Source: Nitrospiraceae bacterium
GTDB taxonomy: Bacteria; Nitrospirota; Thermodesulfovibrionia; UBA6902
Assembly: GCA_003599275.1 (NCBI GenBank)
Contig: QZJG01000057.1
Span: 6,556 to 70,555, forward strand
Length of the DNA: 64,000 nt
Reading direction: 5' to 3'
Positions 1-63,658 of the stretch are shown piece by piece. Below the pieces are notes generated by a model, which did no database searches, was not told the DNA's origin, and saw only the letters and a list, made by a program, of their open reading frames with translations. Each line of letters starts with the position of its first letter. The stretch's first letter is position 1. A program made the translations under genes and the position numbers.

Positions 1-1678
1 CATAAGAGAGCAGGGCAATAAGAAAAGAACAGCGGTCAATGAAATCACTTTTGGCATTAAGGTATTTTCAAACTGGGACTTTGCCAGGGCCGCGGGTCTC
101 GCCATTGAGTTAAAGGGATTGGAGAAGCGCCGCACTTCCTTTGTTGTCCGCAGGCTGGATGACAGCGGCAAACCCGATACCGCTTATCTGAAGACCGAAC
201 CCGTTGATCTTGCGAAGGCCGCGCCAATGCCGCCATCGCCGCTTGGGTTCAGGGCCGAAGCTGAAAAGAGCGGAATAGAACTCTACTGGCGACTTGCGCG
301 TAATCCTTTGCCGGTGTTCGCCTACGTAGTGGAGCGGGAGTATAAAGGAGAGCTTCGCACTCTTACAGATAGTCCCCTGGTCCTCGGCAGCAACTGGCCG
401 GAGAAGTCTCCGGCATTTGTCGATAAACAGCCTCCGCTGGAGAGCGACGTGGTCTATATTGTCCGGGCCGTGGATGCTCTGGGCCGTCGTTCCAATCCTG
501 TTGCGACGGGTATCTTTTCTCCTGATCTCTTCGCCCTGGACGCACCCATGGACGTGAAGGCAGATGCAGTGAAAACGAATACAGCGGAAGTATCCTGGAA
601 GGCAAACAGCAGTTCCAATACAGCCGGATATCTGGTAGAGCGTTCCTATCAGCTCTCCGGTCCCTTCGAGATTTTGACGCCGGAAGGGGTGACCCCCGGC
701 ACAACGAGTTATAAGGACAAAGGGCTCCGTCCGGGTACTACCTACTTTTACCGTGTGCGGGCCATTGGAGCAAGGGGTGATACAGGACCTCCAGGTCCTG
801 CAGTAATGGCCGTAGTCCGGGGTGAACCGGTACCCGCGCCGGAAAATCTCACAGCGGAAGCAGGGCAGACACGTGTTCGTCTGACCTGGGAAGCAGTGGC
901 TGCTGCGTCCGGCTACCACGTGGAACGGCGCACCGGGAATGAGCGCCCGTGGAGCCGCTTGACCGGTATGCCCGTGCCTGATATGCTTTATGACGACCAT
1001 ACAGGCTATAGCCCTGGCGGCCGTTTCGAGTATCGTGTGCTTGCAGCAGGCTATGATGGTCAGGATGGAAAGCCATCCCGGCCGGTTGAGGTAATGCTGC
1101 AGGACACTGTATCTCCTGCACCGCCTCGTTTTATCGAAGCCAGCGGGGAGGGAGGAAAGGTATGGCTTACGTTTGCCCCCGCTGCTCCTGAAGAAGACAC
1201 GAGTCAGGTACTGGTATTGCGGGCTGATCAGCCTGATCAGCAGGGGCTGGTAATCGGTGACCCCCTGTCCGGACGGGGAAGACAGTTTGAGGACAGATGG
1301 GTGGAGCCGGGACGTCGCTACTATTACCGTCTTGTTGCGGTGGATGCGAGCGGCAACCGCAGCGACCCCGGCGAAGCGGTGGGTGTACTGGTGGGGCATG
1401 AATCTCTGCCGAGACCTGATGCGCCCGAGGCTGTCTATGCGGGCAGTCCATTCCCGCACGTGCGCCTGAGTTTTGATGAACCGCCCAAAGGGCTCCGGGT
1501 ACTCGTAGAGGCACAGACCGGGACAGGGGCATGGCTCTACGTAGCGGGGCCGGTCACAGGCAGAGAGGCGATAGACCTCAATCCCGGCAAAGAGGCAAAA
1601 CGTTATCGCCTGCGTTACCAGGATGCAGGAGGCGCCGCAGGCCCGGCCTCTAAAGAGGCTGTTTTTTCCGGGCATTGA
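1..1678 (+). CDS. Fibronectin type III repeat protein; 5' end lies outside the window
   Basis: The reading frame is open from base 2 to the TGA at 1676-1678, with no stop upstream of the track's TTG at 119. It contains repeated ~90-aa modules ending in Fn3-like strands (VYIVRAVDALGRRS, YFYRVRAIGARGD, FEYRVLAAGYDGQDG, YYYRLVAVDASGNRS). Confidence 0.7.
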   Translation, partial: IREQGNKKRTAVNEITFGIKVFSNWDFARAAGLAIELKGLEKRRTSFVVRRLDDSGKPDTAYLKTEPVDLAKAAPMPPSPLGFRAEAEKSGIELYWRLARNPLPVFAYVVEREYKGELRTLTDSPLVLGSNWPEKSPAFVDKQPPLESDVVYIVRAVDALGRRSNPVATGIFSPDLFALDAPMDVKADAVKTNTAEVSWKANSSSNTAGYLVERSYQLSGPFEILTPEGVTPGTTSYKDKGLRPGTTYFYRVRAIGARGDTGPPGPAVMAVVRGEPVPAPENLTAEAGQTRVRLTWEAVAAASGYHVERRTGNERPWSRLTGMPVPDMLYDDHTGYSPGGRFEYRVLAAGYDGQDGKPSRPVEVMLQDTVSPAPPRFIEASGEGGKVWLTFAPAAPEEDTSQVLVLRADQPDQQGLVIGDPLSGRGRQFEDRWVEPGRRYYYRLVAVDASGNRSDPGEAVGVLVGHESLPRPDAPEAVYAGSPFPHVRLSFDEPPKGLRVLVEAQTGTGAWLYVAGPVTGREAIDLNPGKEAKRYRLRYQDAGGAAGPASKEAVFSGH

Positions 1679-1710
1679 ACTTATAATTTATTCCGGATCA
1701 GGGAGATAAA

Positions 1711-3723
1711 ATGAGAAATTATTTTTTGGCTGTTGTTCTTTGTCTTGCTGTAGCTGTTTCTGCTTTTGGCGGTGAGTTGTCTCAGAATGAGGTTATCCGT
1801 GTAGTCACACCACAAAATGCCTCTGAAGTGATCGGGAAAAAGCCTGAGATCAGGATCGAGTTCACTGTTCCTGTTGACCCGTCGAGTATTGTCTTGCTCC
1901 TCGACGGCACGGACCTGACCCAATTGGGGACAAAAGATGAGAAATCTTTTACCTGCACATCGTTTGGCATATTACCCTCAGGCCCTCACAGCCTGACTGT
2001 TATTGCGAAGGACCCGGACGGAAATTCTTATCAGGTAAATAGTTCGTTCACAAGCCGCCACACTGCTGCTTTCGAGGAAGCATACAGTAATAACGAAGCT
2101 GCGGCGATTTACGAATCGGCCCTTGCGAAACCGGAGCGGGCGGTCAGCACCCCCTACTCAAAATTCGAAGGGAACATCAATACTGATTCGAAACTCAAGA
2201 ACAGGGAATATGAGGCGGGATTCACGGCAAATCTGAGATATTTCGATCAGAGCCTTCCAGTGCTCTCTACGGTGCTCTCCTCCGGGATAGATACTTCCGT
2301 TCAGGACCTGTCCCTTCTCGAAAAGGGTTTCAGCCTCGCCAATTTTCTCTTCACCGGCAGGTATATTAAAGATCCTTTTATGATGACGGCTGAAATAGGC
2401 GATGTCCTGGTAAGCGAGACGCAAAACACCGTTTCCGGCCTTGCACGACGCGGAGGCAAGTTGATGTTCGAATACGAAGACGCAACATTGAACACCTTTC
2501 TCGTGAAGGGCGAGCGAGTTTTCGGGTTCAACGGAGGCCTCGGTATTAATGGGTCGGGCGATGACCATATATTCGGCGCTTCGGCCGGGTTGAAGCTGCC
2601 GGACAGGAAGATGGAGTTAAAAACAGTCTACGTCAGAGGCGGTGAACCGCCCTCTTCCGTTGGTACGGCAACTTCGGCAAACATCCCTGAATCCACCCCG
2701 GGCCTTGTTAAGGACGGCGCTCACACAAAAGGCGACGTAATCGGACTGCAGCTTGTTACGGACTTCTTCGAGAACCGCTTCAGGACCGAGATGGAATTTG
2801 ACTCGTCGAGGTTCGACTTTGACCTGGATGACGATGAGGGCAAGGAAAGCGATGTTTCCTATCGAGCAAAGGGAGGCGGCGCTCTCGGCCGGTACATTTA
2901 CGAGGCGGGATATGAGTTTTACGGCAGGGATTATGCAGTGATCGGAAACCAGGGAGCGATGAAGGACGCCGAGATATTCAGTTTTATGAACGGGCTGACA
3001 CTCGAAGGGCACAGCATGACGCTCGCACTTTCACGGACGAACGATAATGTGCGGAAAGAAAAAGCACTCCCCCGGATTGTGAAGCATGACGGGACGGTCA
3101 CATACAGTTTCATGAAAATCCCTCAACTGCCTGTCACTTTTATTTACCAAAAAAGCCTGCAGGACAGCACGCGTGAGCCGGATGGCATGAACGAGATCGA
3201 GATCGATACAGATACCGCGACAGGTTCGGTAAGCTATGTGGACGGAGGCTTCAGCACTTCATTCACGGCGGTATACTCCTTTTTGAATGACAGGACTTCA
3301 ACGGGCGCAGACACCAGGACGGTCACTTATGTGCTTGTCCCGTCATATGCTGCGCCTGTCTTCTCGATATTACCCATGGCGTCCTGGAACAGGACAAAGG
3401 ACACTCTCAGCGATATCAAAACGGATACCTATACCGGCGGACTGAATTTTTACAGCAAGTTCTTTGACGACCGGATGGCCTTTGACGCAGGTGGGACATA
3501 TACGGCAGTCCGGAACAGCGACGATACGGTGAAAACGAATGACTTCAACAGCACCGTGCGTGTCGGTTACAATATGAGGCATCTTGTGAATTGGCTTGTT
3601 GATCCGACGATCTCTCTGAAGGGCCAATATGTGCGGCATAAGGACGATGTTGACGATTCAAACGACTCGGATGAGTTCCTGCTCTTTCTGGTGCTCTCAA
3701 CTATAATGCCGGTTTCTTTATAG
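1711..3723 (+). CDS. Secreted beta-rich protein with an N-terminal Ig-like domain; possibly outer membrane; function unknown
   Basis: It has a signal peptide (MRNYFLAVVLCLAVAVSAFG). An Ig-like/SbsA-type segment follows (IRIEFTVPVDPSSIVLLLDG...HSLTVIAKDPDGN). The rest is a long region of alternating polar and hydrophobic residues. The gene starts 32 nt after the Fn3 gene. The C-terminus (MPVSL) is not a canonical OMP signature, so a barrel assignment is tentative. Confidence 0.6.
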   Translation: MRNYFLAVVLCLAVAVSAFGGELSQNEVIRVVTPQNASEVIGKKPEIRIEFTVPVDPSSIVLLLDGTDLTQLGTKDEKSFTCTSFGILPSGPHSLTVIAKDPDGNSYQVNSSFTSRHTAAFEEAYSNNEAAAIYESALAKPERAVSTPYSKFEGNINTDSKLKNREYEAGFTANLRYFDQSLPVLSTVLSSGIDTSVQDLSLLEKGFSLANFLFTGRYIKDPFMMTAEIGDVLVSETQNTVSGLARRGGKLMFEYEDATLNTFLVKGERVFGFNGGLGINGSGDDHIFGASAGLKLPDRKMELKTVYVRGGEPPSSVGTATSANIPESTPGLVKDGAHTKGDVIGLQLVTDFFENRFRTEMEFDSSRFDFDLDDDEGKESDVSYRAKGGGALGRYIYEAGYEFYGRDYAVIGNQGAMKDAEIFSFMNGLTLEGHSMTLALSRTNDNVRKEKALPRIVKHDGTVTYSFMKIPQLPVTFIYQKSLQDSTREPDGMNEIEIDTDTATGSVSYVDGGFSTSFTAVYSFLNDRTSTGADTRTVTYVLVPSYAAPVFSILPMASWNRTKDTLSDIKTDTYTGGLNFYSKFFDDRMAFDAGGTYTAVRNSDDTVKTNDFNSTVRVGYNMRHLVNWLVDPTISLKGQYVRHKDDVDDSNDSDEFLLFLVLSTIMPVSL

Positions 3724-3727
3724 GAGG

Positions 3728-4798
3728 ATGAAAATGAAAAAGATATACGCACTCATACTGACACTCATATTGTTCAGCACAGGATATTCGGAGGCCGCGG
3801 TGGGCACGGTTTCCCCTCCATCGATTTCAGTAACGAAGGGCGTCCCGTCAACAGCGACTCTGGTCTACCGGCTGAGCGACGTTGCAGCTACCAATTGCGA
3901 ATACAGGTCGAGCAAGGGCAGCTTCATCGGGGGAACGAGTCCGCTGCTCGAAGAAAATCCGGTTGCGCTCACGGTTGTCATCCCTTCCACGATCAACAGC
4001 GGCTCGGCAACCGAAACGCTCAGGGTCTCTGCAGGCCTTATCGAGAAGGCACTGCGCCGGGATATCCGCACGTTTACGTACACGCGTGTATTTGAGTCTG
4101 TTACTTGTGATGATATTGCAGTAACGATGAATGTGACGATCACGGTCAAGGGTGAGGCATCCGCGGAATTCGGAATAACCCGCATGGAGCTCTACTTCGA
4201 AAACCGGAGGCCCGAAATCACAATCGGGAGAAACACGCCGGACCTGAAGGCCTTTGCCGACGTCCGTTTTGCAGGTTCGGGTCTTCTGGAGGGATACTGG
4301 GAGGTTGATGGAAGGCTCATCAGCCGTGAGTTCCGCCATCTCATATACGGACGGAGCGTTACGCTCCAGTCGCCGCAGGTCCCCGGCCTGCCGACTTTTG
4401 ATGAAGGCTCTCATGTCGTTCGTTTTGTGATTACCAAACCTGTTTCGGACATTGCCACGCCTTTCATCGTCTATTTCGTCACACCGAAGGAGATGAAGGT
4501 CCGGCAGGCCCCGCTTCTGCTTCTCGTTCCTGTCGAAGGGGGAAGCGCCAAAGCGGAGACGAAATTCTCCTGGGAGAAGCCTGAGGGAGCAAACATTTTC
4601 CTCATTTCCTTTTATGAGGACCGCGGGGGAACGCCTATCTTCTCGGCATATACGCGGGAGCCGTTCTATTCGCTTCCCGGACCTGTGGCAAGCAGGGTCT
4701 TTACGGCTGAAAGGCAGTATTTCTGGAAGGTGGTCGGATTCGATGCAGAGAATCAGGAGACGAGCGAGAGCGACAAGAGGGCTTTCATTATTAATTGA
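3728..4798 (+). CDS. Secreted hypothetical protein, third gene of the Fn3 cluster
   Basis: It has a signal peptide (KKIYALILTLILFSTGYSEA). The gene starts 4 nt after the previous stop and ends 3 nt before uvrB. I recognise no motifs. Confidence 0.6.
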   Translation: MKMKKIYALILTLILFSTGYSEAAVGTVSPPSISVTKGVPSTATLVYRLSDVAATNCEYRSSKGSFIGGTSPLLEENPVALTVVIPSTINSGSATETLRVSAGLIEKALRRDIRTFTYTRVFESVTCDDIAVTMNVTITVKGEASAEFGITRMELYFENRRPEITIGRNTPDLKAFADVRFAGSGLLEGYWEVDGRLISREFRHLIYGRSVTLQSPQVPGLPTFDEGSHVVRFVITKPVSDIATPFIVYFVTPKEMKVRQAPLLLLVPVEGGSAKAETKFSWEKPEGANIFLISFYEDRGGTPIFSAYTREPFYSLPGPVASRVFTAERQYFWKVVGFDAENQETSESDKRAFIIN

Positions 4799-4801
4799 AC
4801 A

Positions 4802-6811
4802 ATGAAAAGGGACAATAAGGCCACGGGCGCATTCAAATTGATCTCCGGCTTCAGGCCAACCGGCGATCAGCCGAAGGCCATTGAACGGCTTACGGAAGGT
4901 GTTCTAAATAAAACGGGGCATCAGGTCCTCTTGGGCGTTACCGGCTCCGGCAAGACCTTTACCATTGCCAATGTCATAGCGAATATAAATAAACCGGCGC
5001 TTGTCATTGCGCACAACAAGACCCTTGCGGCACAATTATACGGCGAATTCAAGTCCTTCTTCCCTGAGAACGCGGTGGAATATTTTGTGAGTTTCTACGA
5101 CTACTATCAGCCTGAAGCGTACCTCCCGTCCACCGACACGTATATTGAAAAAGACTCCATGATAAACGAAGACATTGACAGGCTGAGGCACGCGGCGACA
5201 CGCTCTGTGCTTGAAAGAAACGATACCGTTATCGTGGCCTCGGTCTCGTGCATCTACGGCATCGGATCGCCTGAGGATTATTCAGACATGCATCTGAGTA
5301 TAGAGAAAGGGATGCGGACGGAGAGGGACGCATTCCTGAGAAAGCTTGTTGATATGCTTTATGAGCGCACGGAAGACTTCAAAAGGGGCACGTTCAGGGT
5401 GAGGGGCGATATCGTGGAGATATTCCCTTCTTTTTCAGGCGACAACGCGATAAGGGTTGAATTCTTCGGAGATGACATAGACGGGCTGTATGAGTTTGAT
5501 TCTCTCTCCGGCAAGGTAATCAGGCGTATTGAAAAAATCGATCTTTATCCCAACAGCCACTGGATCACGCCGAGGCCGAGGATCGAAAGGGCGCTCTCTA
5601 CTATTAATGAAGAGCTCGGAGAGAGGTTGAATTTTTTCCTGAGGCAGGGCAGGGAGCTTGAGGCAAAGAGACTTGAGCAGAGGACGCGCTTCGATATGGA
5701 GATGCTCAAAGAATTCGGATACTGCCACGGTATAGAAAACTACTCGAGGCATTTAAACGGCAGGATGCCGGGAGAGCCGCCGTACTGCCTCATAGATTAT
5801 TTCCCGGAGGATTTTCTCGTTATCATCGACGAGTCCCACGCAACGGTCCCGCAGATAGGGGGCATGTACGAGGGAGACCGGTCGAGAAAACAGACGCTCA
5901 TTGACTTCGGCTTCAGGCTTCCGTCCGCGCTCGATAACCGCCCGCTCAGGTTTAATGAGTTTGAGCACAGGGTGCGGGAGGCGATTTATGTCTCCGCGAC
6001 ACCCTCGGAATATGAGCTTAACAAATCCGGCCGCCGCATTGTGGAGCAGATTGTCCGGCCCACGGGGCTGATGGACCCGGTTATTGAAGTGCGGCCTGTT
6101 GCCGGGCAGCTTGATGATCTCCTCGGAGAGATCAGGAAGAGGGCAGAAGGCGGGGAAAGGGTGCTGGTTACGACCCTTACAAAAAAAATGGCGGAGGATA
6201 TCACGGAGTACTATACGGAATTGGGGACCAGGGCACGGTATCTGCACTCCGATATCGATACCCTTGAGAGGATCGAGATCCTGCGCGACCTGAGACTCGG
6301 CAAATTCGACGCGCTCATCGGAGTGAACCTGTTGAGGGAAGGGCTGGACCTTCCGGAGGTGTCGCTTGTTGCGATATTCGATGCCGACAAAGAGGGCTTC
6401 CTGCGATCGGGCCGCTCCCTTATCCAGACCTCGGGAAGGGCCGCGAGGAATGTGAACGGCATTGTCATATTCTATGCCGACAAAATAACCGGCTCGATGA
6501 AGACCGCCATCGATGAGACAACCAGGAGACGGAAGATCCAGGAAGCTTACAATAAAAAGCACAAGATAACCCCGACATCGATCAAAAAGGAGATAACGAA
6601 TATCCTCAGCTCCATTTATGAAGCGGACTACTGGACGGTGCAGGCGGTGGCTGAGGAAAAGGTCGAATACGGCGACGAGTCCGTAATCATAAAACTCGAA
6701 GAGGAAATGAAAGAAGCCGCCAAGCGACTCGATTTTGAAAAGGCCGCGGAGATAAGAGACCGCATCAGGGCGATAAAGAATAAACAGATCGAGGTAGGGA
6801 TCAAGGTGTAG
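4802..6811 (+). CDS. uvrB: Excinuclease ABC subunit B
   Basis: Walker [10 protein letters not shown] is present, along with the YDYYQPEAY beta-hairpin region and helicase motifs. The C-terminal UVR domain is present ([24 protein letters not shown]). Confidence 0.97.
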
Positions 6812-39628: not shown

Positions 39629-39712
39629 TTTTGAACAATACATGACCTTGAATCTTATCGGGGAATCCTGTATTCTTTCCTGAATATTCTTTTCTGCCTT
39701 TTGTTCGCGAAC

Positions 39713-40924
39713 ATGTTAAGACCTGAAGAACAGCTCAAAGTAATCAAAAGGGGAGCGGTCGAGATTCTGATCGAGAAGGAACTGATCGGAAAGCTTGAAC
39801 GTTCCTTTCAGACCGGCGTGTCCCTGAAGGTAAAGGCCGGGTTTGACCCTACTGCGCCCGATATTCACCTCGGACACACCGTGCTTCTCGAAAAGATGCG
39901 GCAGTTTCAGGACCTGGGGCATGAGGTCATTTTTATCATCGGTGATTTCACCGGGATGATAGGCGACCCCACAGGAAGGTCTGAAATCAGAAAGCCTCTG
40001 ACACGGGACGAAGTGCTGAAAAATGCCGAGAGCTACAAGGAGCAGGCCTTCAAAATCCTTGATCCCGGAAAGACCCGGATAAGCTTCAATAGTGAATGGC
40101 TGGGCACAATGAATACCATCGAATTTGCAAGGCTCGGCTCCATGCAGACTGTTGCGCGCATGCTTGAACGGGAAGACTTTAAAAAGAGATTCGAGAGCCG
40201 GCATGACATCAGCATACTCGAATTTTATTACCCCCTGCTTCAGGCATATGATTCTGTTTTCCTGAAGGCAGACGTGGAGCTTGGGGGGACCGACCAGAAG
40301 TTCAATCTGCTTATGGGACGCACCCTGCAAAAGAGAATGGGTGTCGAGGAACAGGTCGTTCTTACAATGCCCTTGCTTGAGGGGACCGACGGGGTAAATA
40401 AAATGAGTAAGAGCCTCGGGAATTATATCGGCATAACCGAAGAGCCCAAAGACATGTTCGGGAAAATAATGTCGATCAGCGATGAATTAATGCTCAGATA
40501 TTATGAGCTTCTCAGTCATGTTTCGATCGATGAATTGACCGCGATAAAAACGGGGACAAAGGATGGCAGCGTCCATCCGAAGAAGGCCAAGGAAGGTCTT
40601 GCGCTTGAGCTTGTCGAAAGATACCGGGGAAAAGACGCTTCGGTAAACGCGAAGGAAGAATTCGAGCATGTATTTAAGGACAAAGGATTGCCGGAAGATG
40701 TCCCTGTTTTTAAAACCCCGCATGACGAATCTGAAATCTGGCTCCCGAAAGTGATGAAGCTCTCAGGAATTGTGAAGAGCACCGGCGAAGGGATAAGGCT
40801 CATTAAACAGGGCGGCGTCACCGTTAATAATGAGAAGTGGAGCGACCCGGACAAAAAACTCCCGCAGGGAGAATATCTCCTCAAAGCCGGGAAGAGAAGG
40901 TTTCTGAAAATTGTCCCTGAATGA
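39713..40924 (+). CDS. tyrS: Tyrosine--tRNA ligase
   Basis: The HIGH-type motif (PDIHLGHTV), KMSKS, and a C-terminal S4 domain are present. I prefer the ATG at 39713 to the track's TTG at 39701. Confidence 0.95.
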
Positions 40925-40931
40925 AAGTGCG

Positions 40932-40948
40932 GCCGGCAGCCTGCCGGC
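40932..40948 (-). promoter_or_regulatory. SECIS-like hairpin 2 (GCCGGC-AGGCU-GCCGGC); could also serve as a tyrS/grx terminator
   Basis: This perfect 6-7-bp stem has the loop AGGCU, which starts 17 nt after UGA 2. It lies just beyond the TAA stop. Confidence 0.45.
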
Positions 40949-40950
40949 AA

Positions 40951-41166
40951 TTACACCCCTCAGGAGCCTTCGTAGCCTATTGTGACCTCACCGTCTCTGA
41001 CAATTACAGGTACCTTTCTCTGTCCCCCGGAAAGCCTTAGCATCTCATCCAGTTTTATTCTGTCTGCCTTGACATCATAATATTCCGCACCCCAGCCATA
41101 AGCCGACCTGGCCTTTTCCGTAAAGGGTCAGCCTGCCTTTCCAAAGATAATTACCCTGTCTGCCAT
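40951..41166 (-). CDS. Glutaredoxin-like protein with two in-frame UGA codons (probable selenoprotein), not in the ORF track
   Basis: The Shine-Dalgarno context is AAAGGAGGCGCTGTT-ATG. The translation is MADRVIIFGKAG-U-PFTEKARSAYGWGAEYYDVKADRIKLDEMLRLSGGQRKVPVIVRDGEVTIGYEGS-U-GV-stop. UGA 1 (41130-41128) replaces the first Cys of the Grx CPxC motif. UGA 2 (40962-40960) lies 3 codons before the TAA. The Grx core RKVPVIV.DG...IGY is present. Confidence 0.6.
41100..41114 (-). promoter_or_regulatory. SECIS-like hairpin 1 (AGGCC-AGGUC-GGCUU)
   Basis: This 5-bp stem (one G-U pair) has the loop AGGUC, which starts 18 nt after UGA 1. As I recall it, the E. coli fdhF SECIS apical region reads GCAGGUCUGC. 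Confidence 0.45.
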
Positions 41167-41472
41167 AACAGCGCCTCCTTTGTATAAGTTTATACGGCCC
41201 CCCCCATTCTGCACCTATCCGGCAACAAGATGCTCCTGTTGCCGCGAAGCATTGTAACTGTAAGCAGGGAGATTTTTAAAATATTATTTCATTATAACCA
41301 TAATGCCGGACGCGAACAAGCGCAAATACAAAATTTGCGGTTTTGACTTTTGAAGAACCCGACAATTACGCAAACCGGTTGCCGTTGACAAAAAAAGGGC
41401 AATTACGTACATTTGATGAGGATGATAAGCCATCATCTGTATAACTCTACAAATCAAGTATAAGGAGAGACT

Positions 41473-41892
41473 ATGCCGGACGCTAAGGTTGTTTTCGTCG
41501 AGGGGATGCAATTTATCGGCACTGCGGATTCAGGACATGCAGTGGTCATGGATGGACCGTCTTCAGTTGGCGGCAATAATACCGGTTCAAAGCCATCGGA
41601 GCTGCTGCTGATGGCATTTGGAGGTTGCTCAGGGATGGACGTGATTTCAATCTTGAGAAAGAAGAAGCTGGCTGTGACCAGATTTGAAATGAACGTAAAA
41701 GGCGAGATGGCCAAAGAGCATCCGCATATGTATACGTCGATGCATATAGAATATGTAGTCACGGGGAAGGACATCCCTGAGGACGCAGTGAAGCGGGCGA
41801 TTGATCTCTCGCTTGAAAAATACTGCTCGGTCGGCGCAACCCTGGGCAAGGCGGCAAAGATAACGCACTCGTATAAGATTGTTCAGGAATGA
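41473..41892 (+). CDS. OsmC/Ohr family peroxiredoxin-like protein
   Basis: The two conserved Cys contexts are present (AFGGCSGMDV and EKYCSVGATL). The protein is 139 aa. It is transcribed divergently from the Grx-like gene. Confidence 0.85.
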   Translation: MPDAKVVFVEGMQFIGTADSGHAVVMDGPSSVGGNNTGSKPSELLLMAFGGCSGMDVISILRKKKLAVTRFEMNVKGEMAKEHPHMYTSMHIEYVVTGKDIPEDAVKRAIDLSLEKYCSVGATLGKAAKITHSYKIVQE

Positions 41893-51486: not shown

Positions 51487-52776
<1,290 letters not shown>

Positions 52777-52831: not shown

Positions 52832-52917
52832 GGAGGGGTGGCCGAGTGGTCGATGGCGGCGGTCTTGAAAACCGCAGGATGAAAGTCCCGTGGGTTCGAA
52901 TCCTACCCCCTCCGCCA
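52832..52917 (+). tRNA. tRNA-Ser (anticodon UGA), with encoded CCA
   Basis: The sequence is GGAGGGGTGGCCGAGTGGTCGATGGCGGCGGTCTTGAAAACCGCAGGATGAAAGTCCCGTGGGTTCGAATCCTACCCCCTCCGCCA. The acceptor stem GGAGGGG/CCCCTCC, the long variable arm, the T-loop GGTTCGAATCC, and the anticodon loop CT-TGA-AA are all present. Confidence 0.92.
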
Positions 52918-60887: not shown

Positions 60888-62216
60888 TTAATACTGATAC
60901 TCCATCGCCATCTGGCTAAGGGAGTCTTTGCGAAGGAGGTACTGGACCTTGTCCTCGGCGATCATCCTGAATGCCTGTTTGATAATCTCTTTATAGAATT
61001 CGCAGAACGCCGCCTTTTGGTACATGTTGCCTCTTGCGTGCATTTCAGCCGGGCACGGCGAGCCGCAGATGTGTCTGAAGTCGCAGGTATCGCATTCCTC
61101 GATCTTCTCAACCATCCTCTCGCGGATCTGTTTGAACGGTTTTGACTTCATCGCTGTGTCAATCGACGTCTTGAAGATATTGCCTCCCGAGAATTCCTTG
61201 AATCCGATGAACTCCCCGCACGGGACCATCTCCCCGTCTGCCGTGACAGTGAGGAAGGTCCTTCCGCCGCCGCATGGGGAGATATCGCACATCATGCGTC
61301 TTGCAGTGGGCGCAATAATAGCCAGAATGACGTTTGCGAAATTGCCGATGACGATCTGGTGCTTTGTCTTTTGTGAAAGCTCCATTGCAGTCTCAACCGC
61401 CTTCATCATGTTTTTGGCAAATACCATGTCGTCCGGCTTCAGGCTCCAGGAGCGTTTCTGTGTGAGACGCACCGGGTTTAAAAGCATGCAGGGGACTTTC
61501 TTTTTGTGCAGGAATTTCACAAGCTCCGAGAGTTTATTTACATTGTATTTCGTGACCGTTGCGATAACATTCAGTCCCTCATAGCCCTTGAACCAGTCAA
61601 GCGCCTGCACGGCCTTTTTGAAATTGCCTTCGCCCTTTACAGACACGCGCGAGCGGTTGTTGACAGCAGCAGTAGCCGCGTCAAGGGAAATGCCGACGCC
61701 GACCCTGTATTTCATCATAAAGGCCGCGTCCTTTTTCTCAAGCAGAAGCGCATTGGTCTGGATGCCGAAGAGCATTTTATTGTGATATTTCTTTATCCCT
61801 TCAAAGATAATGTCTTTTGCAAGAAGCGGCTCGGCAGCGTGAAATACGATGACCGGTTTTTTCTTCATGCCGTTGAAATGCTCCGCGATTTTAGACAGTG
61901 TCATGTCCAACTGCTCCCATGTCATCTGTGTGCCGTGCCTTCTGATCTTTGCCGGGATGTAGCAGTAAGGGCAGTTTGCATTGCACCTGTCTGTGGGGTC
62001 AATGTAGACGCAGTTCAGCGGCTCATTGAACCTGAAGTTTTTCATCTCCGTGTCGAGGTGTTCGCGCTCTTTGTTGTAGAGCTTGATCAGATCATCGGGA
62101 AGCATGAATTCCCCGTTGTTACGAGGCAGCAGGCCCCAGAAGACATTCTCCGGATCCAGCGCCAACTTCCATTCTGTATCAATGTTTGAAAACGAAATTC
62201 CGCGTGTGTTGTTCAT
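60888..62216 (-). CDS. Radical SAM/SPASM peptide-maturase-like enzyme (CbpB-like)
   Basis: The CNANCPYC cluster is present. The C-terminal SPASM cysteines are CDISPCGGG...CGEF...CDTCDFRHICGSPCPAE...C. The protein is 442 aa. Confidence 0.85.
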   Translation of the reverse strand: MNNTRGISFSNIDTEWKLALDPENVFWGLLPRNNGEFMLPDDLIKLYNKEREHLDTEMKNFRFNEPLNCVYIDPTDRCNANCPYCYIPAKIRRHGTQMTWEQLDMTLSKIAEHFNGMKKKPVIVFHAAEPLLAKDIIFEGIKKYHNKMLFGIQTNALLLEKKDAAFMMKYRVGVGISLDAATAAVNNRSRVSVKGEGNFKKAVQALDWFKGYEGLNVIATVTKYNVNKLSELVKFLHKKKVPCMLLNPVRLTQKRSWSLKPDDMVFAKNMMKAVETAMELSQKTKHQIVIGNFANVILAIIAPTARRMMCDISPCGGGRTFLTVTADGEMVPCGEFIGFKEFSGGNIFKTSIDTAMKSKPFKQIRERMVEKIEECDTCDFRHICGSPCPAEMHARGNMYQKAAFCEFYKEIIKQAFRMIAEDKVQYLLRKDSLSQMAMEYQY

Positions 62217-62266
62217 TTTGTGTTGCTCTCCTTTTTCATGGTTATATCTGTTACGTAAATACAGCC

Positions 62267-62325
62267 GTCATTGCGGCTTGTCCGCAATCCTTCTTAAAGA
62301 AAGATTCCAGGCAAGCTGGAATGAC
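62267..62325. repeat. Palindromic repeat, hybrid GTCATTGCGGC...GCTGGAATGAC
   Basis: The sequence is GTCATTGCGGCTTGTCCGCAATCC-ttcttaaagaaa-GATTCCAGGCAAGCTGGAATGAC. It lies directly upstream of the rSAM gene. Confidence 0.85.
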
Positions 62326-62378
62326 AATAACAATATGAATACTACCTCGAAATTAAATGACGGACACGACAGTGAATG

Positions 62379-62441
62379 ACCACTGAGGCACTGAGACGCC
62401 GGGGTTTTATTTTTCCTCTGTGCCTCTGTGCCTCTGTGGTT
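62379..62441. repeat. Hairpin repeat, CACAGAG family, 14 nt downstream of the peptide ORF
   Basis: The sequence is ACCACTGAGGCACTGAGACGCCGGGGTTTTATTTTTCCTCTGTGCCTCTGTGCCTCTGTGGTT. Confidence 0.85.
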
Positions 62442-62454
62442 TGCTTATTTTCTG

Positions 62455-62589
62455 TTACAATGGCATCTTCTTCTTCGGCACGTCGCCGTACATTACGAAG
62501 TGCGTAAGGCCGTTTGCTGTCTTGGCGCATTTCATATGAAATGAAATTGCGGCCTTTGTCTTCTTCTCAGCCTTCTTTGCCTTGTTCAT
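62455..62589 (-). CDS. 44-aa candidate precursor peptide (MNKAKKAEKKTKAAISFHMKCAKTANGLTHFVMYGDVPKKKMPL), not in the ORF track (CbpA-like)
   Basis: The Shine-Dalgarno sequence is very strong (AAAGGAGGTGAGGAGTA-ATG). It lies on the same strand between cbiO and the rSAM/SPASM gene. The track's overlapping 62-aa ORF is in a different frame and has no Shine-Dalgarno sequence. Confidence 0.55.
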   Translation of the reverse strand: MNKAKKAEKKTKAAISFHMKCAKTANGLTHFVMYGDVPKKKMPL

Positions 62590-62640
62590 TACTCCTCACC
62601 TCCTTTCTGTCCTTAGCGGTTGCTCAAAAAGTTTGTAATT

Positions 62641-62722
62641 GTCATTGCGAGGAGCGGTTTCAGCGACGAAGCAATCTGTAATTTATTGAAAAGTGAGATT
62701 GCTTTGCTTCGCTCGCAAAGAC
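62641..62722. repeat. Palindromic repeat, GTCATTGCGAG family, copy 11
   Basis: The sequence is GTCATTGCGAGGAGCGGTTTCAGCGACGAAGCAATC...GAGATTGCTTTGCTTCGCTCGCAAAGAC. Confidence 0.85.
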
Positions 62723-62740
62723 GGCAAAAATACTTTTTCA

Positions 62741-63658
62741 TTAGTCTGTATTCTGTGCTCTGTGTTCTTTGTTCTCCATCGCCTTCAGTATCTCTCTTCT
62801 TGCCTCACCGATGGTGAGTGGAATGCGGTCAAAATTTATCTTGTCCTCGTGCTTTAATTTGTAAAGCAGCTCCGCTATATGCGGCAGCCTGAGCTTTATA
62901 TTCGCCATGTCTTCCGGCGCATCAAAGACCTCTTCCGGCGTGCCGCCTCTCGTGATTCTACCCTTGCTCAGGATATAAAGACTGTCAAGAAACACCGGCA
63001 CAAGGTCCACGCTGTGAGTTGCCATTATAACAGTCACGCCGCTTTCCTTGTTCAATTTCCGAAGCAGTTTCATCATCCTGTATTCGCCCATGGGATCGAG
63101 CCCGGCAGTGGGCTCATCAAGAAGGAGCGTTTCATGCCCCATTGCCAAAAGCCCGGCGATGCACGCGCGCTTTTTCTGCCCGAAGCTCAGGTTGTGCACG
63201 GACTTTTTCTCAAGCCCTGAAAGCTCAACCTCCTCCAATGCATTCAGCACACGCCTCTCAACTTCCTTTGCATTAAAGCCCATATTCATCGGGCCGAATG
63301 CCACGTCTTCAAAGAGCGTAGGCGCAAAGAGCTGATCATCCGGACTTTGAAATACAAGCCCGACCTTTTTATATATCTCCTTTGGCGACAGGGTGCTGAT
63401 ATCAATCCCGCTTAAATGGATATTGCCTTCAACCCCCCTTAGCAGCTTGTCCATGGCCCGAAGCAGGGTTGTCTTGCCGGAGCCATTGGCCCCCAGCAGT
63501 CCGACAAACGTACCCTTTTTCACCTCAAGATTTATATCTGAAAGCGCATGCGTTCCATCCGGATATTTGTAGGACACATTTATGACCGAATACATCAGAT
63601 CATTCGTTTCCGTCTGTGCTCTGTGCTCTTTGTTCTGTGTTCTTCTTAAATCATCCAT
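62741..63658 (-). CDS. cbiO: ECF/cobalt-type ABC transporter ATP-binding protein (CbiO/EcfA)
   Basis: Walker A GANGSGKTT, the signature LSFGQKKRACIAGLL, and Walker B LLLDEPTAGLD are present. The ATG at 63658 has GGAGGAGCGGT upstream. Both protein ends contain NKEHRAQ, which is encoded by a repeat. Confidence 0.9.
   Translation of the reverse strand: MDDLRRTQNKEHRAQTETNDLMYSVINVSYKYPDGTHALSDINLEVKKGTFVGLLGANGSGKTTLLRAMDKLLRGVEGNIHLSGIDISTLSPKEIYKKVGLVFQSPDDQLFAPTLFEDVAFGPMNMGFNAKEVERRVLNALEEVELSGLEKKSVHNLSFGQKKRACIAGLLAMGHETLLLDEPTAGLDPMGEYRMMKLLRKLNKESGVTVIMATHSVDLVPVFLDSLYILSKGRITRGGTPEEVFDAPEDMANIKLRLPHIAELLYKLKHEDKINFDRIPLTIGEARREILKAMENKEHRAQNTD

Follow-up and report, generated by a model that had tools for sequence, protein, structure and literature searches.

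Selenoproteins of the UXX-star families are defined by a selenocysteine (Sec, U) lying three codons before the stop (U-x-x-stop). UXX-star family 1 comprises proteins of about 70 amino acids with two Sec residues, one in an N-terminal UP[FYH]T motif and one in an IGYGG[ST]-U-G-V-stop end, with a VPVI cis-Pro motif between them. A recent review lists the family as "distant Grx-like protein 1", with the motif UxxT and 2 Sec residues (PMC13188914, 2026), where it is credited to Zhang and Gladyshev (2008) and Haft and Tolstoy (2025). Here we describe a gene of this kind, interrupted by two in-frame UGA codons, in a 64,000-nucleotide (64-kb) stretch of a Nitrospiraceae bacterium genome (assembly GCA_003599275.1, contig QZJG01000057.1, positions 6,556 to 70,555), referred to below as the window. 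The locus is very probably a functional two-Sec gene encoding a minimal glutaredoxin (Grx) fold and an orthologue of NCBIfam family NF041114, with both UGAs read as Sec through their own selenocysteine insertion sequence (SECIS) hairpins. It is an ordinary member of an already catalogued family, and the initial annotation of this DNA, which had made the same call from the letters alone, was correct without being new.

Several described systems resemble the gene in part. UXX-star families 2 and 3 and the HUGP/GUXX-star fusion share the glutaredoxin-like scaffold, the U-x-x-stop ending and detectable sequence similarity, but the window protein scores far under their cut-offs (40-43 bits against 97-325 for NF041211, NF047338 and NF045501), which makes them sister families. 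The Sec-glutaredoxin of Clostridium (Alkaliphilus) oremlandii (UPYC; Kim et al., 2011, as cited in PMC13188914) likewise combines the Grx fold with a Sec in first place in the active site. Its UxxC motif, C-terminal helix and single Sec set it apart from the window protein, in which the motif is UxxT, the third helix is lacking and the tail bears a second Sec. The GCUG tail of animal thioredoxin reductase may be likened to the other end of the protein, as it too carries a Sec in the penultimate region of a flexible C-terminal tail, proposed to move back and forth between active site and substrate. However, that enzyme has an unrelated fold, belongs to another domain of life and uses a eukaryotic SECIS, so the likeness would be one of functional analogy.

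The reading frame of the window gene spans 71 codons on the minus strand and translates as MADRVIIFGKAG-UGA-PFTEKARSAYGWGAEYYDVKADRIKLDEMLRLSGGQRKVPVIVRDGEVTIGYEGS-UGA-GV-TAA, with an active site U13-P-F-T and a C-terminal end U69-G-V-stop; the codons after the second UGA are GGG, GUG and UAA. A strong Shine-Dalgarno sequence, AAAGGAGG, lies 7 nt upstream of the ATG. All of these elements, including the start at 41166, are present in the sequence as the initial annotation had described them, and the range it gave (40932-41166) accurately spans the locus from the end of the second hairpin to the start codon. Scored with U entered as C, the protein reaches 104.2 bits against NF041114 ("UXX-star selenoprotein family 1"; cut-off 72), covering profile positions 1-70 of 70, and 75.9 bits against the parent subfamily model NF041212 (cut-off 66), while Pfam Glutaredoxin PF00462 gives 33.4 bits. 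The glutaredoxin-like (seleno)protein family named for the U-x-x-stop arrangement, to which the initial annotation had referred, does exist, and the window protein passes the curated cut-offs of both of its models. Orthologues carry the UXX-star family name from NCBI's own pipeline (e.g. P0022), the U-x-x-stop layout is found in the window gene and in 80/80 relatives, and the [U/C]-P-x-T N-terminal motif and glutaredoxin-like fold are found in the window protein and an orthologue model. Classical dithiol glutaredoxin of the CPYC type was considered and rejected, given the UPFT motif, the lack of a third helix and scores of 16-26 bits against NCBIfam Grx equivalogs with cut-offs of 87-129. Compared with the rest of family 1, the window copy differs in nothing of substance; its stop is TAA where 38 of the 81 sequences compared use TGA, and its neighbours are tyrS and an osmC-family gene.

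Relatives were sought by a scan of one genome per species, which gave 205, and 80 loci were retrieved for comparison, making 81 sequences with the window. The loci are mostly from Nitrospirota/Thermodesulfovibrionia, with others from Syntrophia, Desulfobacterales, Pelotomaculum, Ignavibacterium and Anaerolineales. Amino-acid identity to the window protein is 59-87% across loci, and public orthologues from metagenome-assembled genomes (MAGs) reach 83-87%. Gene calls retrieved by protein search are of three types: 68-residue proteins with Cys13 that end just before position 69; fragments of 42-47 residues that start after position 13 and stop before 69; and read-throughs in the style of genetic code 4, with W13, W69 and often W at the stop. 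This is exactly the pattern expected from mis-called UGA codons.

Codon 69 is TGA in 81/81 sequences and is followed by exactly two codons and a stop, the stop being unseen in one sequence that the contig end truncates. GGN occupies codon 70 in 78/81 and GUN occupies codon 71 in 73/81, with Ile in six more; at both, all four synonymous codons occur. The stop at codon 72 is TGA in 38 sequences, TAA in 33 and TAG in nine. Conserved amino acids combined with free third positions at codons 70-71 point to purifying selection, and therefore to ribosomes reading through UGA2. A possible objection to the U-x-x-stop reading was that homologues might simply end at one of the UGAs, and they do not: the Gly-Val codons are kept with synonymous variation and the position of the stop is fixed. 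These data bear on a different view of the gene, that translation ends at UGA2, giving a product of 68 residues with at most one Sec, and that the hairpin behind it is a terminator or mRNA-stability element shared with tyrS. Most gene callers do stop the protein at residue 68, but untranslated sequence would not show Gly in 78/81 and Val or Ile in 79/81 with free third positions, nor a stop placed exactly at codon 72 in every sequence but the one cut short.

Codon 13 is more variable, with TGA at 61 of the 80 loci, TGC or TGT at 18 and TAA at one. The last is a Nitrospirae MAG (locus L054, TAA at 3037-3039), in which the hairpin downstream is weakened to an AGATC loop with 4/5 pairs; this copy is probably a pseudogene or carries a sequencing error. 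An exhaustive profile search of 1.8 billion representatives recovered rare, distant all-Cys relatives (P0081, P0135 and P0202) ending in ...TCGV, ...YCGI and ...YCAV followed by the stop. The C-x-x-stop ending is thus older than, or independent of, Sec use. All-Cys relatives with a C-G-V-stop ending also count against an end at UGA2. Taken with the 18 TGY codons at position 13, these proteins show that both positions form Sec/Cys pairs, which is what the initial annotation had proposed that an alignment of homologues should reveal. Homologues have TGA or Cys at codon 13, and at codon 69 TGA in 80/80 loci with Cys in distant relatives.

The same codon data deal with the suggestion that the UGAs are sequencing or assembly errors, marks of a decaying pseudogene, or sense codons for Trp or Gly under a reassigned code. 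Both TGAs recur in independent assemblies from several phyla, they alternate with Cys codons and not with those for Trp or Gly, and the rest of the reading frame is under strong purifying selection, as the identities above indicate. Several public gene calls do place W at the UGAs under code 4, and one relative has the TAA just mentioned. Within the window, though, TGA is the stop of 22/54 long non-overlapping reading frames, including tyrS, osmC and ftsK, so the code is standard and codes 4 and 25 are ruled out. With this the error, pseudogene or reassigned-code explanation is effectively refuted.

Each UGA is followed by a hairpin. SECIS 1 lies within the coding sequence, embedded in the codons for K-A-R-S-A-Y, and its loop starts 18 nt after UGA1. 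Among 55 distinct Sec-13 sequences, 96.7% of the cells of its 5-bp stem are paired, and two of the pairs covary (G-C to A-U, and C-G to U-A or A-U), with 28 compensatory cells in which the changes are largely at synonymous third positions. When the 3' arm was slid by 1-3 nt as a control, pairing dropped to 10-58%. The full stem is present in 49/58 Sec-13 forms against 5/18 Cys-13 forms, a difference for which the Fisher value of about 1e-5 is indicative only, owing to phylogenetic clustering of the Cys forms. These Cys-13 forms no longer have the AGG loop, and their ARSA codons have drifted to ALSA or AISA. Hairpin 1 is linked to the UGA at codon 13 and largely lost in forms with Cys13.

SECIS 2 lies wholly in the 3' untranslated region (UTR), because UGA2 has just two codons and the stop behind it. 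The start of the loop lies 17 nt beyond UGA2, and the hairpin begins 2 nt past the TAA and ends 7 nt from the tyrS stop. Each of the 76 distinct sequences has a hairpin of 5 bp or more that begins 8-21 nt from the U of UGA2, where shuffled sequences gave a mean of 28 and a maximum of 42, and across the family the distance from the UGA to the start of the loop is most often 17-18 nt. The stems themselves are wholly different among lineages (CCGGC, CCGAU, CUCAUC, UUCGAUC and others), and RNAalifold finds four consensus pairs, all supported by compensatory changes, in 13-25 sequences per pair. Loops are G-rich, mostly GGY or GUU, the constant feature being a G near nt 22-23, counted from the U of the UGA. 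To return to the view that the protein stops at UGA2, what would favour a terminator or stability element here is that the hairpin is a perfect palindrome within the 27-nt gap of two convergent genes. A consensus scan, however, found no U-tract at SECIS 2, which is not terminator-like, and a better terminator candidate lies further downstream; the distance between hairpin and UGA2 is also fixed in loci with differing downstream neighbours. Together with the codon data, this makes an end at UGA2 extremely unlikely.

In 38/81 sequences (e.g. L001:862-873) the stop of U-G-V-stop is itself TGA, so that two UGAs stand 9 nt apart before one shared hairpin in the 3' UTR. The read-through extensions that code-4 gene calls place past this UGA stop are not conserved. 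In these relatives the first UGA alone is recoded, and they are a natural illustration of the SECIS spacing rule.

Hairpins with an AGGYY loop had been noted behind both UGAs, and in the window they are there, at 18 and 17 nt, conserved with covariation at that spacing. The loop sequence holds for the two window hairpins but does not extend to hairpin 2 of all family members, as the loops given above illustrate. Counting both strands, the window has only 11 stems of at least 5 bp with an AGGYY pentaloop (8.6e-5 per nt), and two of these stand at the given offsets behind in-frame UGAs; as the motif was defined after the fact, the number is indicative only. The likeness to bacterial SECIS elements, at first drawn from the spacing and the G-rich loop, is now borne out by a register shared with fdhF of Escherichia coli and by conservation and covariation. 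The fdhF SECIS sequence, verified against 5,419 E. coli genomes, has its GGUC loop at nt 22-25 from the U of the UGA; in the window AGGUC occupies nt 22-26 and AGGCU nt 21-25. The equal spacing of the two window hairpins is the canonical SECIS register. As in fdhF, the hairpin is immediately 3' of the UGA and has a GGUC-type apical loop. Unlike fdhF, the conserved stems here are short (5-7 bp), there is no evident bulged U, and SECIS 2 is beyond the stop codon. Untranslated bacterial SECIS elements reportedly work in engineered constructs, e.g. for rat TrxR expressed in E. coli (Arner et al., 1999).

Several results weigh against the interpretation of the locus as a two-Sec gene with two SECIS elements. 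Folding of the single window sequence is no better than for shuffles (z of +0.8 behind UGA1 and about -1.1 behind UGA2), so the functional case for the hairpins must rest on the comparison with relatives, where the contrast between Sec and Cys forms at hairpin 1 is not phylogenetically independent. No Rfam SECIS family matched the whole window at gathering thresholds or the locus at E values up to 10; the matches obtained were tRNA-Ser and a chance Pseudomon-1 match only. Annotation of all long reading frames with Pfam and NCBIfam, and tRNA and Rfam searches, placed no selA, selB, selC (tRNA-Sec) or selD within the 64-kb window. The review that lists the family places it under "predicted with high confidence" only, and not among verified selenoproteins (PMC13188914). 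Finally, a diselenide between U13 and U69, discussed below, is a mechanism that we infer, with the tail modelled at low confidence.

The only tRNA in the window is tRNA-Ser(UGA) at 52832-52917, directly after the seryl-tRNA synthetase gene (51499-52776); it was considered as a tRNA-Sec and ruled out, since the anticodon of the latter would be UCA. Complete selABCD sets have been reported in Thermodesulfovibrio genomes (PMC5389517), which lends indirect support to a Sec trait in the lineage. For the present genome, the presence of selABCD and the actual insertion of Sec are what we infer, and the proposed route is that the bacterial SelB/tRNA-Sec pathway would decode both in-frame UGAs as Sec, each UGA being served by its own SECIS hairpin with a G-containing apical loop at about 22-25 nt from the U.

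Decoding of the UGAs as Cys, in part or wholly, has also to be considered. Mukai et al. described selC* genes for a tRNA-Sec-like tRNA-Cys(UCA) in Thermodesulfovibrio, Smithella, Syntrophobacterales, Desulfobacterales and Clostridia, and demonstrated opal suppression with Cys in a reporter (PMC5389517). These are the lineages that carry the present gene family, and codon 13 tolerates Cys, which is found there in 18 loci, so that a selC* tRNA with SelB or SelB* might insert Cys in a SECIS-dependent manner, e.g. when selenium is scarce. No selC*, selB* or cysS* gene is found in the 64-kb window, however, and genomes with selC* also have a complete Sec apparatus (PMC5389517). The retention of TGA69 in 81/81 sequences further argues for selection of Sec itself, as TGY would have been simpler were Cys intended. 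We therefore regard Cys decoding as very unlikely and Sec as the residue most consistent with both UGAs.

A Protein Data Bank (PDB) search with the single window protein sequence gave no match at E <= 0.01. The family profile, in contrast, matches solved glutaredoxins in the PDB and aligns U13 with the first Cys of CP[FY]C, the position to which UGA1 had originally been assigned. An AlphaFold2 (AF2) model, made for the orthologue P0011 with W standing in for each U, has a mean predicted local distance difference test score (pLDDT) of 81 and the order b1-a1-b2-a2-b3-b4, with no third helix and a disordered tail at residues 67-71. Foldseek matches of this model are glutaredoxins and NrdH-redoxins, with query-normalised template modelling scores (TMq) of 0.65-0.74, and include cGrx1 and cGrx2, the Cys homologues of the Clostridium Sec-glutaredoxin (7c10, 4tr0 and 4tr1; TMq 0.67-0.74). 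Thr is invariant at the fourth active-site position, where dithiol Grx has its resolving Cys.

On this model U13, in a UPFT motif without a resolving Cys, would serve as nucleophile in an active site of the monothiol Grx type. U69 would be carried by a flexible tail at the C-terminus, emerging from the GG loop next to this site, and could act as a resolving or "swinging-arm" partner, the U13-U69 pair forming a diselenide, or a selenenylsulfide in Cys-13 forms. The main functional alternative to such a redox role is metal or metalloid chelation by the two selenolates, a binding role suggested in a review (PMC13188914). The two positions differ in their conservation: UGA69 is kept in 81/81 family 1 sequences across several phyla, whereas the active-site Sec swaps freely with Cys. 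The C-terminal Sec might conceivably do chemistry beyond the reach of Cys, the protein being an unusually low-potential diselenide/selenenylsulfide "swinging-arm" reductant or a selenium or metalloid carrier and not a generic glutaredoxin, with conditional Sec/Cys decoding through the same SECIS pair in selC* lineages; this is a speculative extension which we consider unlikely.

The coordinates of the gene and its signals are collected in Table 1. The candidate promoter and the likely terminator were both assigned by similarity to consensus. The terminator-like site lies 60 nt beyond SECIS 2 and is antisense to the 3' end of tyrS, inside that gene. An 11-bp inverted repeat, CGGCAACAAGA/TCCTGTTGCCG, with a 3-nt loop, was also observed at 41220-41244, in what would be the 5' leader, downstream of the promoter-like site and upstream of the Shine-Dalgarno sequence; no conservation of it was found in the six closest loci.

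Table 1. Features of the UXX-star family 1 gene and its surroundings (positions in the window)
Feature	Position	Strand	Details
Coding sequence, UXX-star family 1 glutaredoxin-like selenoprotein	40951..41166	minus	71 residues + TAA; family and Pfam profile scores, orthologues
Candidate sigma-70-type promoter	41251..41280	minus	TTTAAA, 18 nt, TACAAT; weak consensus match (9/12), putative
Shine-Dalgarno sequence AAAGGAGG	41174..41181	minus	GGAGG invariant in six closest loci
UGA1, codon 13, predicted Sec codon	41128..41130	minus	Position of first Cys of glutaredoxin CPYC motif
SECIS 1 (predicted)	41100..41114	minus	Stem AGGCC/GGCUU, loop AGGUC (41109-41105); nt 17-31 from U of UGA1
UGA2, codon 69, predicted Sec codon three codons before stop	40960..40962	minus	
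TAA stop codon	40953-40951	minus	
SECIS 2 (predicted)	40932..40948	minus	Stem GCCGGC/GCCGGC, loop AGGCU (40942-40938); nt 15-31 from U of UGA2
Likely intrinsic terminator	40849..40871	minus	CTCCCTGCGGGAG then TTTTTTGTCC (T-run); consensus scan only, putative

Around the gene, tyrS (39701-40924) is convergent with it across the 27-nt gap, and an OsmC-family gene (41473-41892, plus strand) is divergent from it. The initial annotation had pointed to this second neighbour as a member of a thiol-peroxidase family with known Sec forms. The divergent OsmC-family gene does exist, but it encodes an ordinary two-Cys form (C52, C118) that is YhfA-like, scoring 137 bits against NF008009, just under the cut-off of 138, and it was rejected as an OsmC-related selenoprotein, being a Cys form with 33 bits against the 95 of that family. 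No OsmC homologue is found within about 3 kb of the selenoprotein gene in any of the 80 loci. The absence of a conserved partnership and the Cys type of the window copy mean that the OsmC argument, which adds no functional evidence, should be dropped. PgpA, LigT, RecA and FtsK are likewise found near the gene in 0/80 loci, and TyrS only in L005, the sole relative that shares the tyrS arrangement and with it part of the window context. Clustering of neighbours over the 80 loci gave a heterogeneous picture with no dominant partner, the commonest neighbour occurring in 15 loci. The selenoprotein gene behaves as a stand-alone unit.

A scan of the reading frames in the window found no credible TGA-interrupted gene besides this one. 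The in-frame pair 3728-4798 and 4802-6811 was considered as a selenoprotein gene and rejected, as these are simply two adjacent genes, the second being uvrB. The region before uvrB (110-4798) is unusual in another respect, in that two open reading frames (ORFs) of about 520 amino acids on opposite strands overlap almost fully (119-1678 on the plus strand and 110-1675 on the minus strand), followed by ORFs of 670 amino acids (1711-3723) and 356 amino acids (3728-4798). Pfam gave no match for the minus-strand ORF 110-1675 or for the 670- and 356-residue ORFs, and NCBIfam none above cut-off for the plus-strand ORF 119-1678 or for the same two. At the other end of the window, on the minus strand at 60888-63658, a CbpB-type peptide-modifying radical S-adenosylmethionine (SAM)/SPASM enzyme (TIGR04163, 508.8 bits against a cut-off of 375) adjoins an ATPase of an energy-coupling factor (ECF)/cobalt-type ATP-binding cassette (ABC) transporter; this cassette may serve the maturation of a ribosomally synthesised and post-translationally modified peptide (RiPP).

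The comparative data presented here stay within the bounds of what is already implied by the NCBIfam models and the literature on selenoproteomes. For annotation, the locus is a classic instance of ORF finders missing or shortening a genuine gene, and flagging it correctly adds a two-Sec protein to the selenoproteome of this genome and implies that the organism uses Sec. For the characterisation of the family, the comparison offers as hypotheses that Sec is kept at the tail, as in each family 1 locus examined, that Sec and Cys are interchangeable at the active site, and that hairpin 1 is lost along with Sec when Cys13 takes its place. With SECIS 1 forming part of the coding sequence and SECIS 2 falling entirely within the 3' UTR, the family provides a natural example of a bacterial 3'-UTR SECIS, and the relatives in which the stop is also UGA make it a natural test of the SECIS "ruler".

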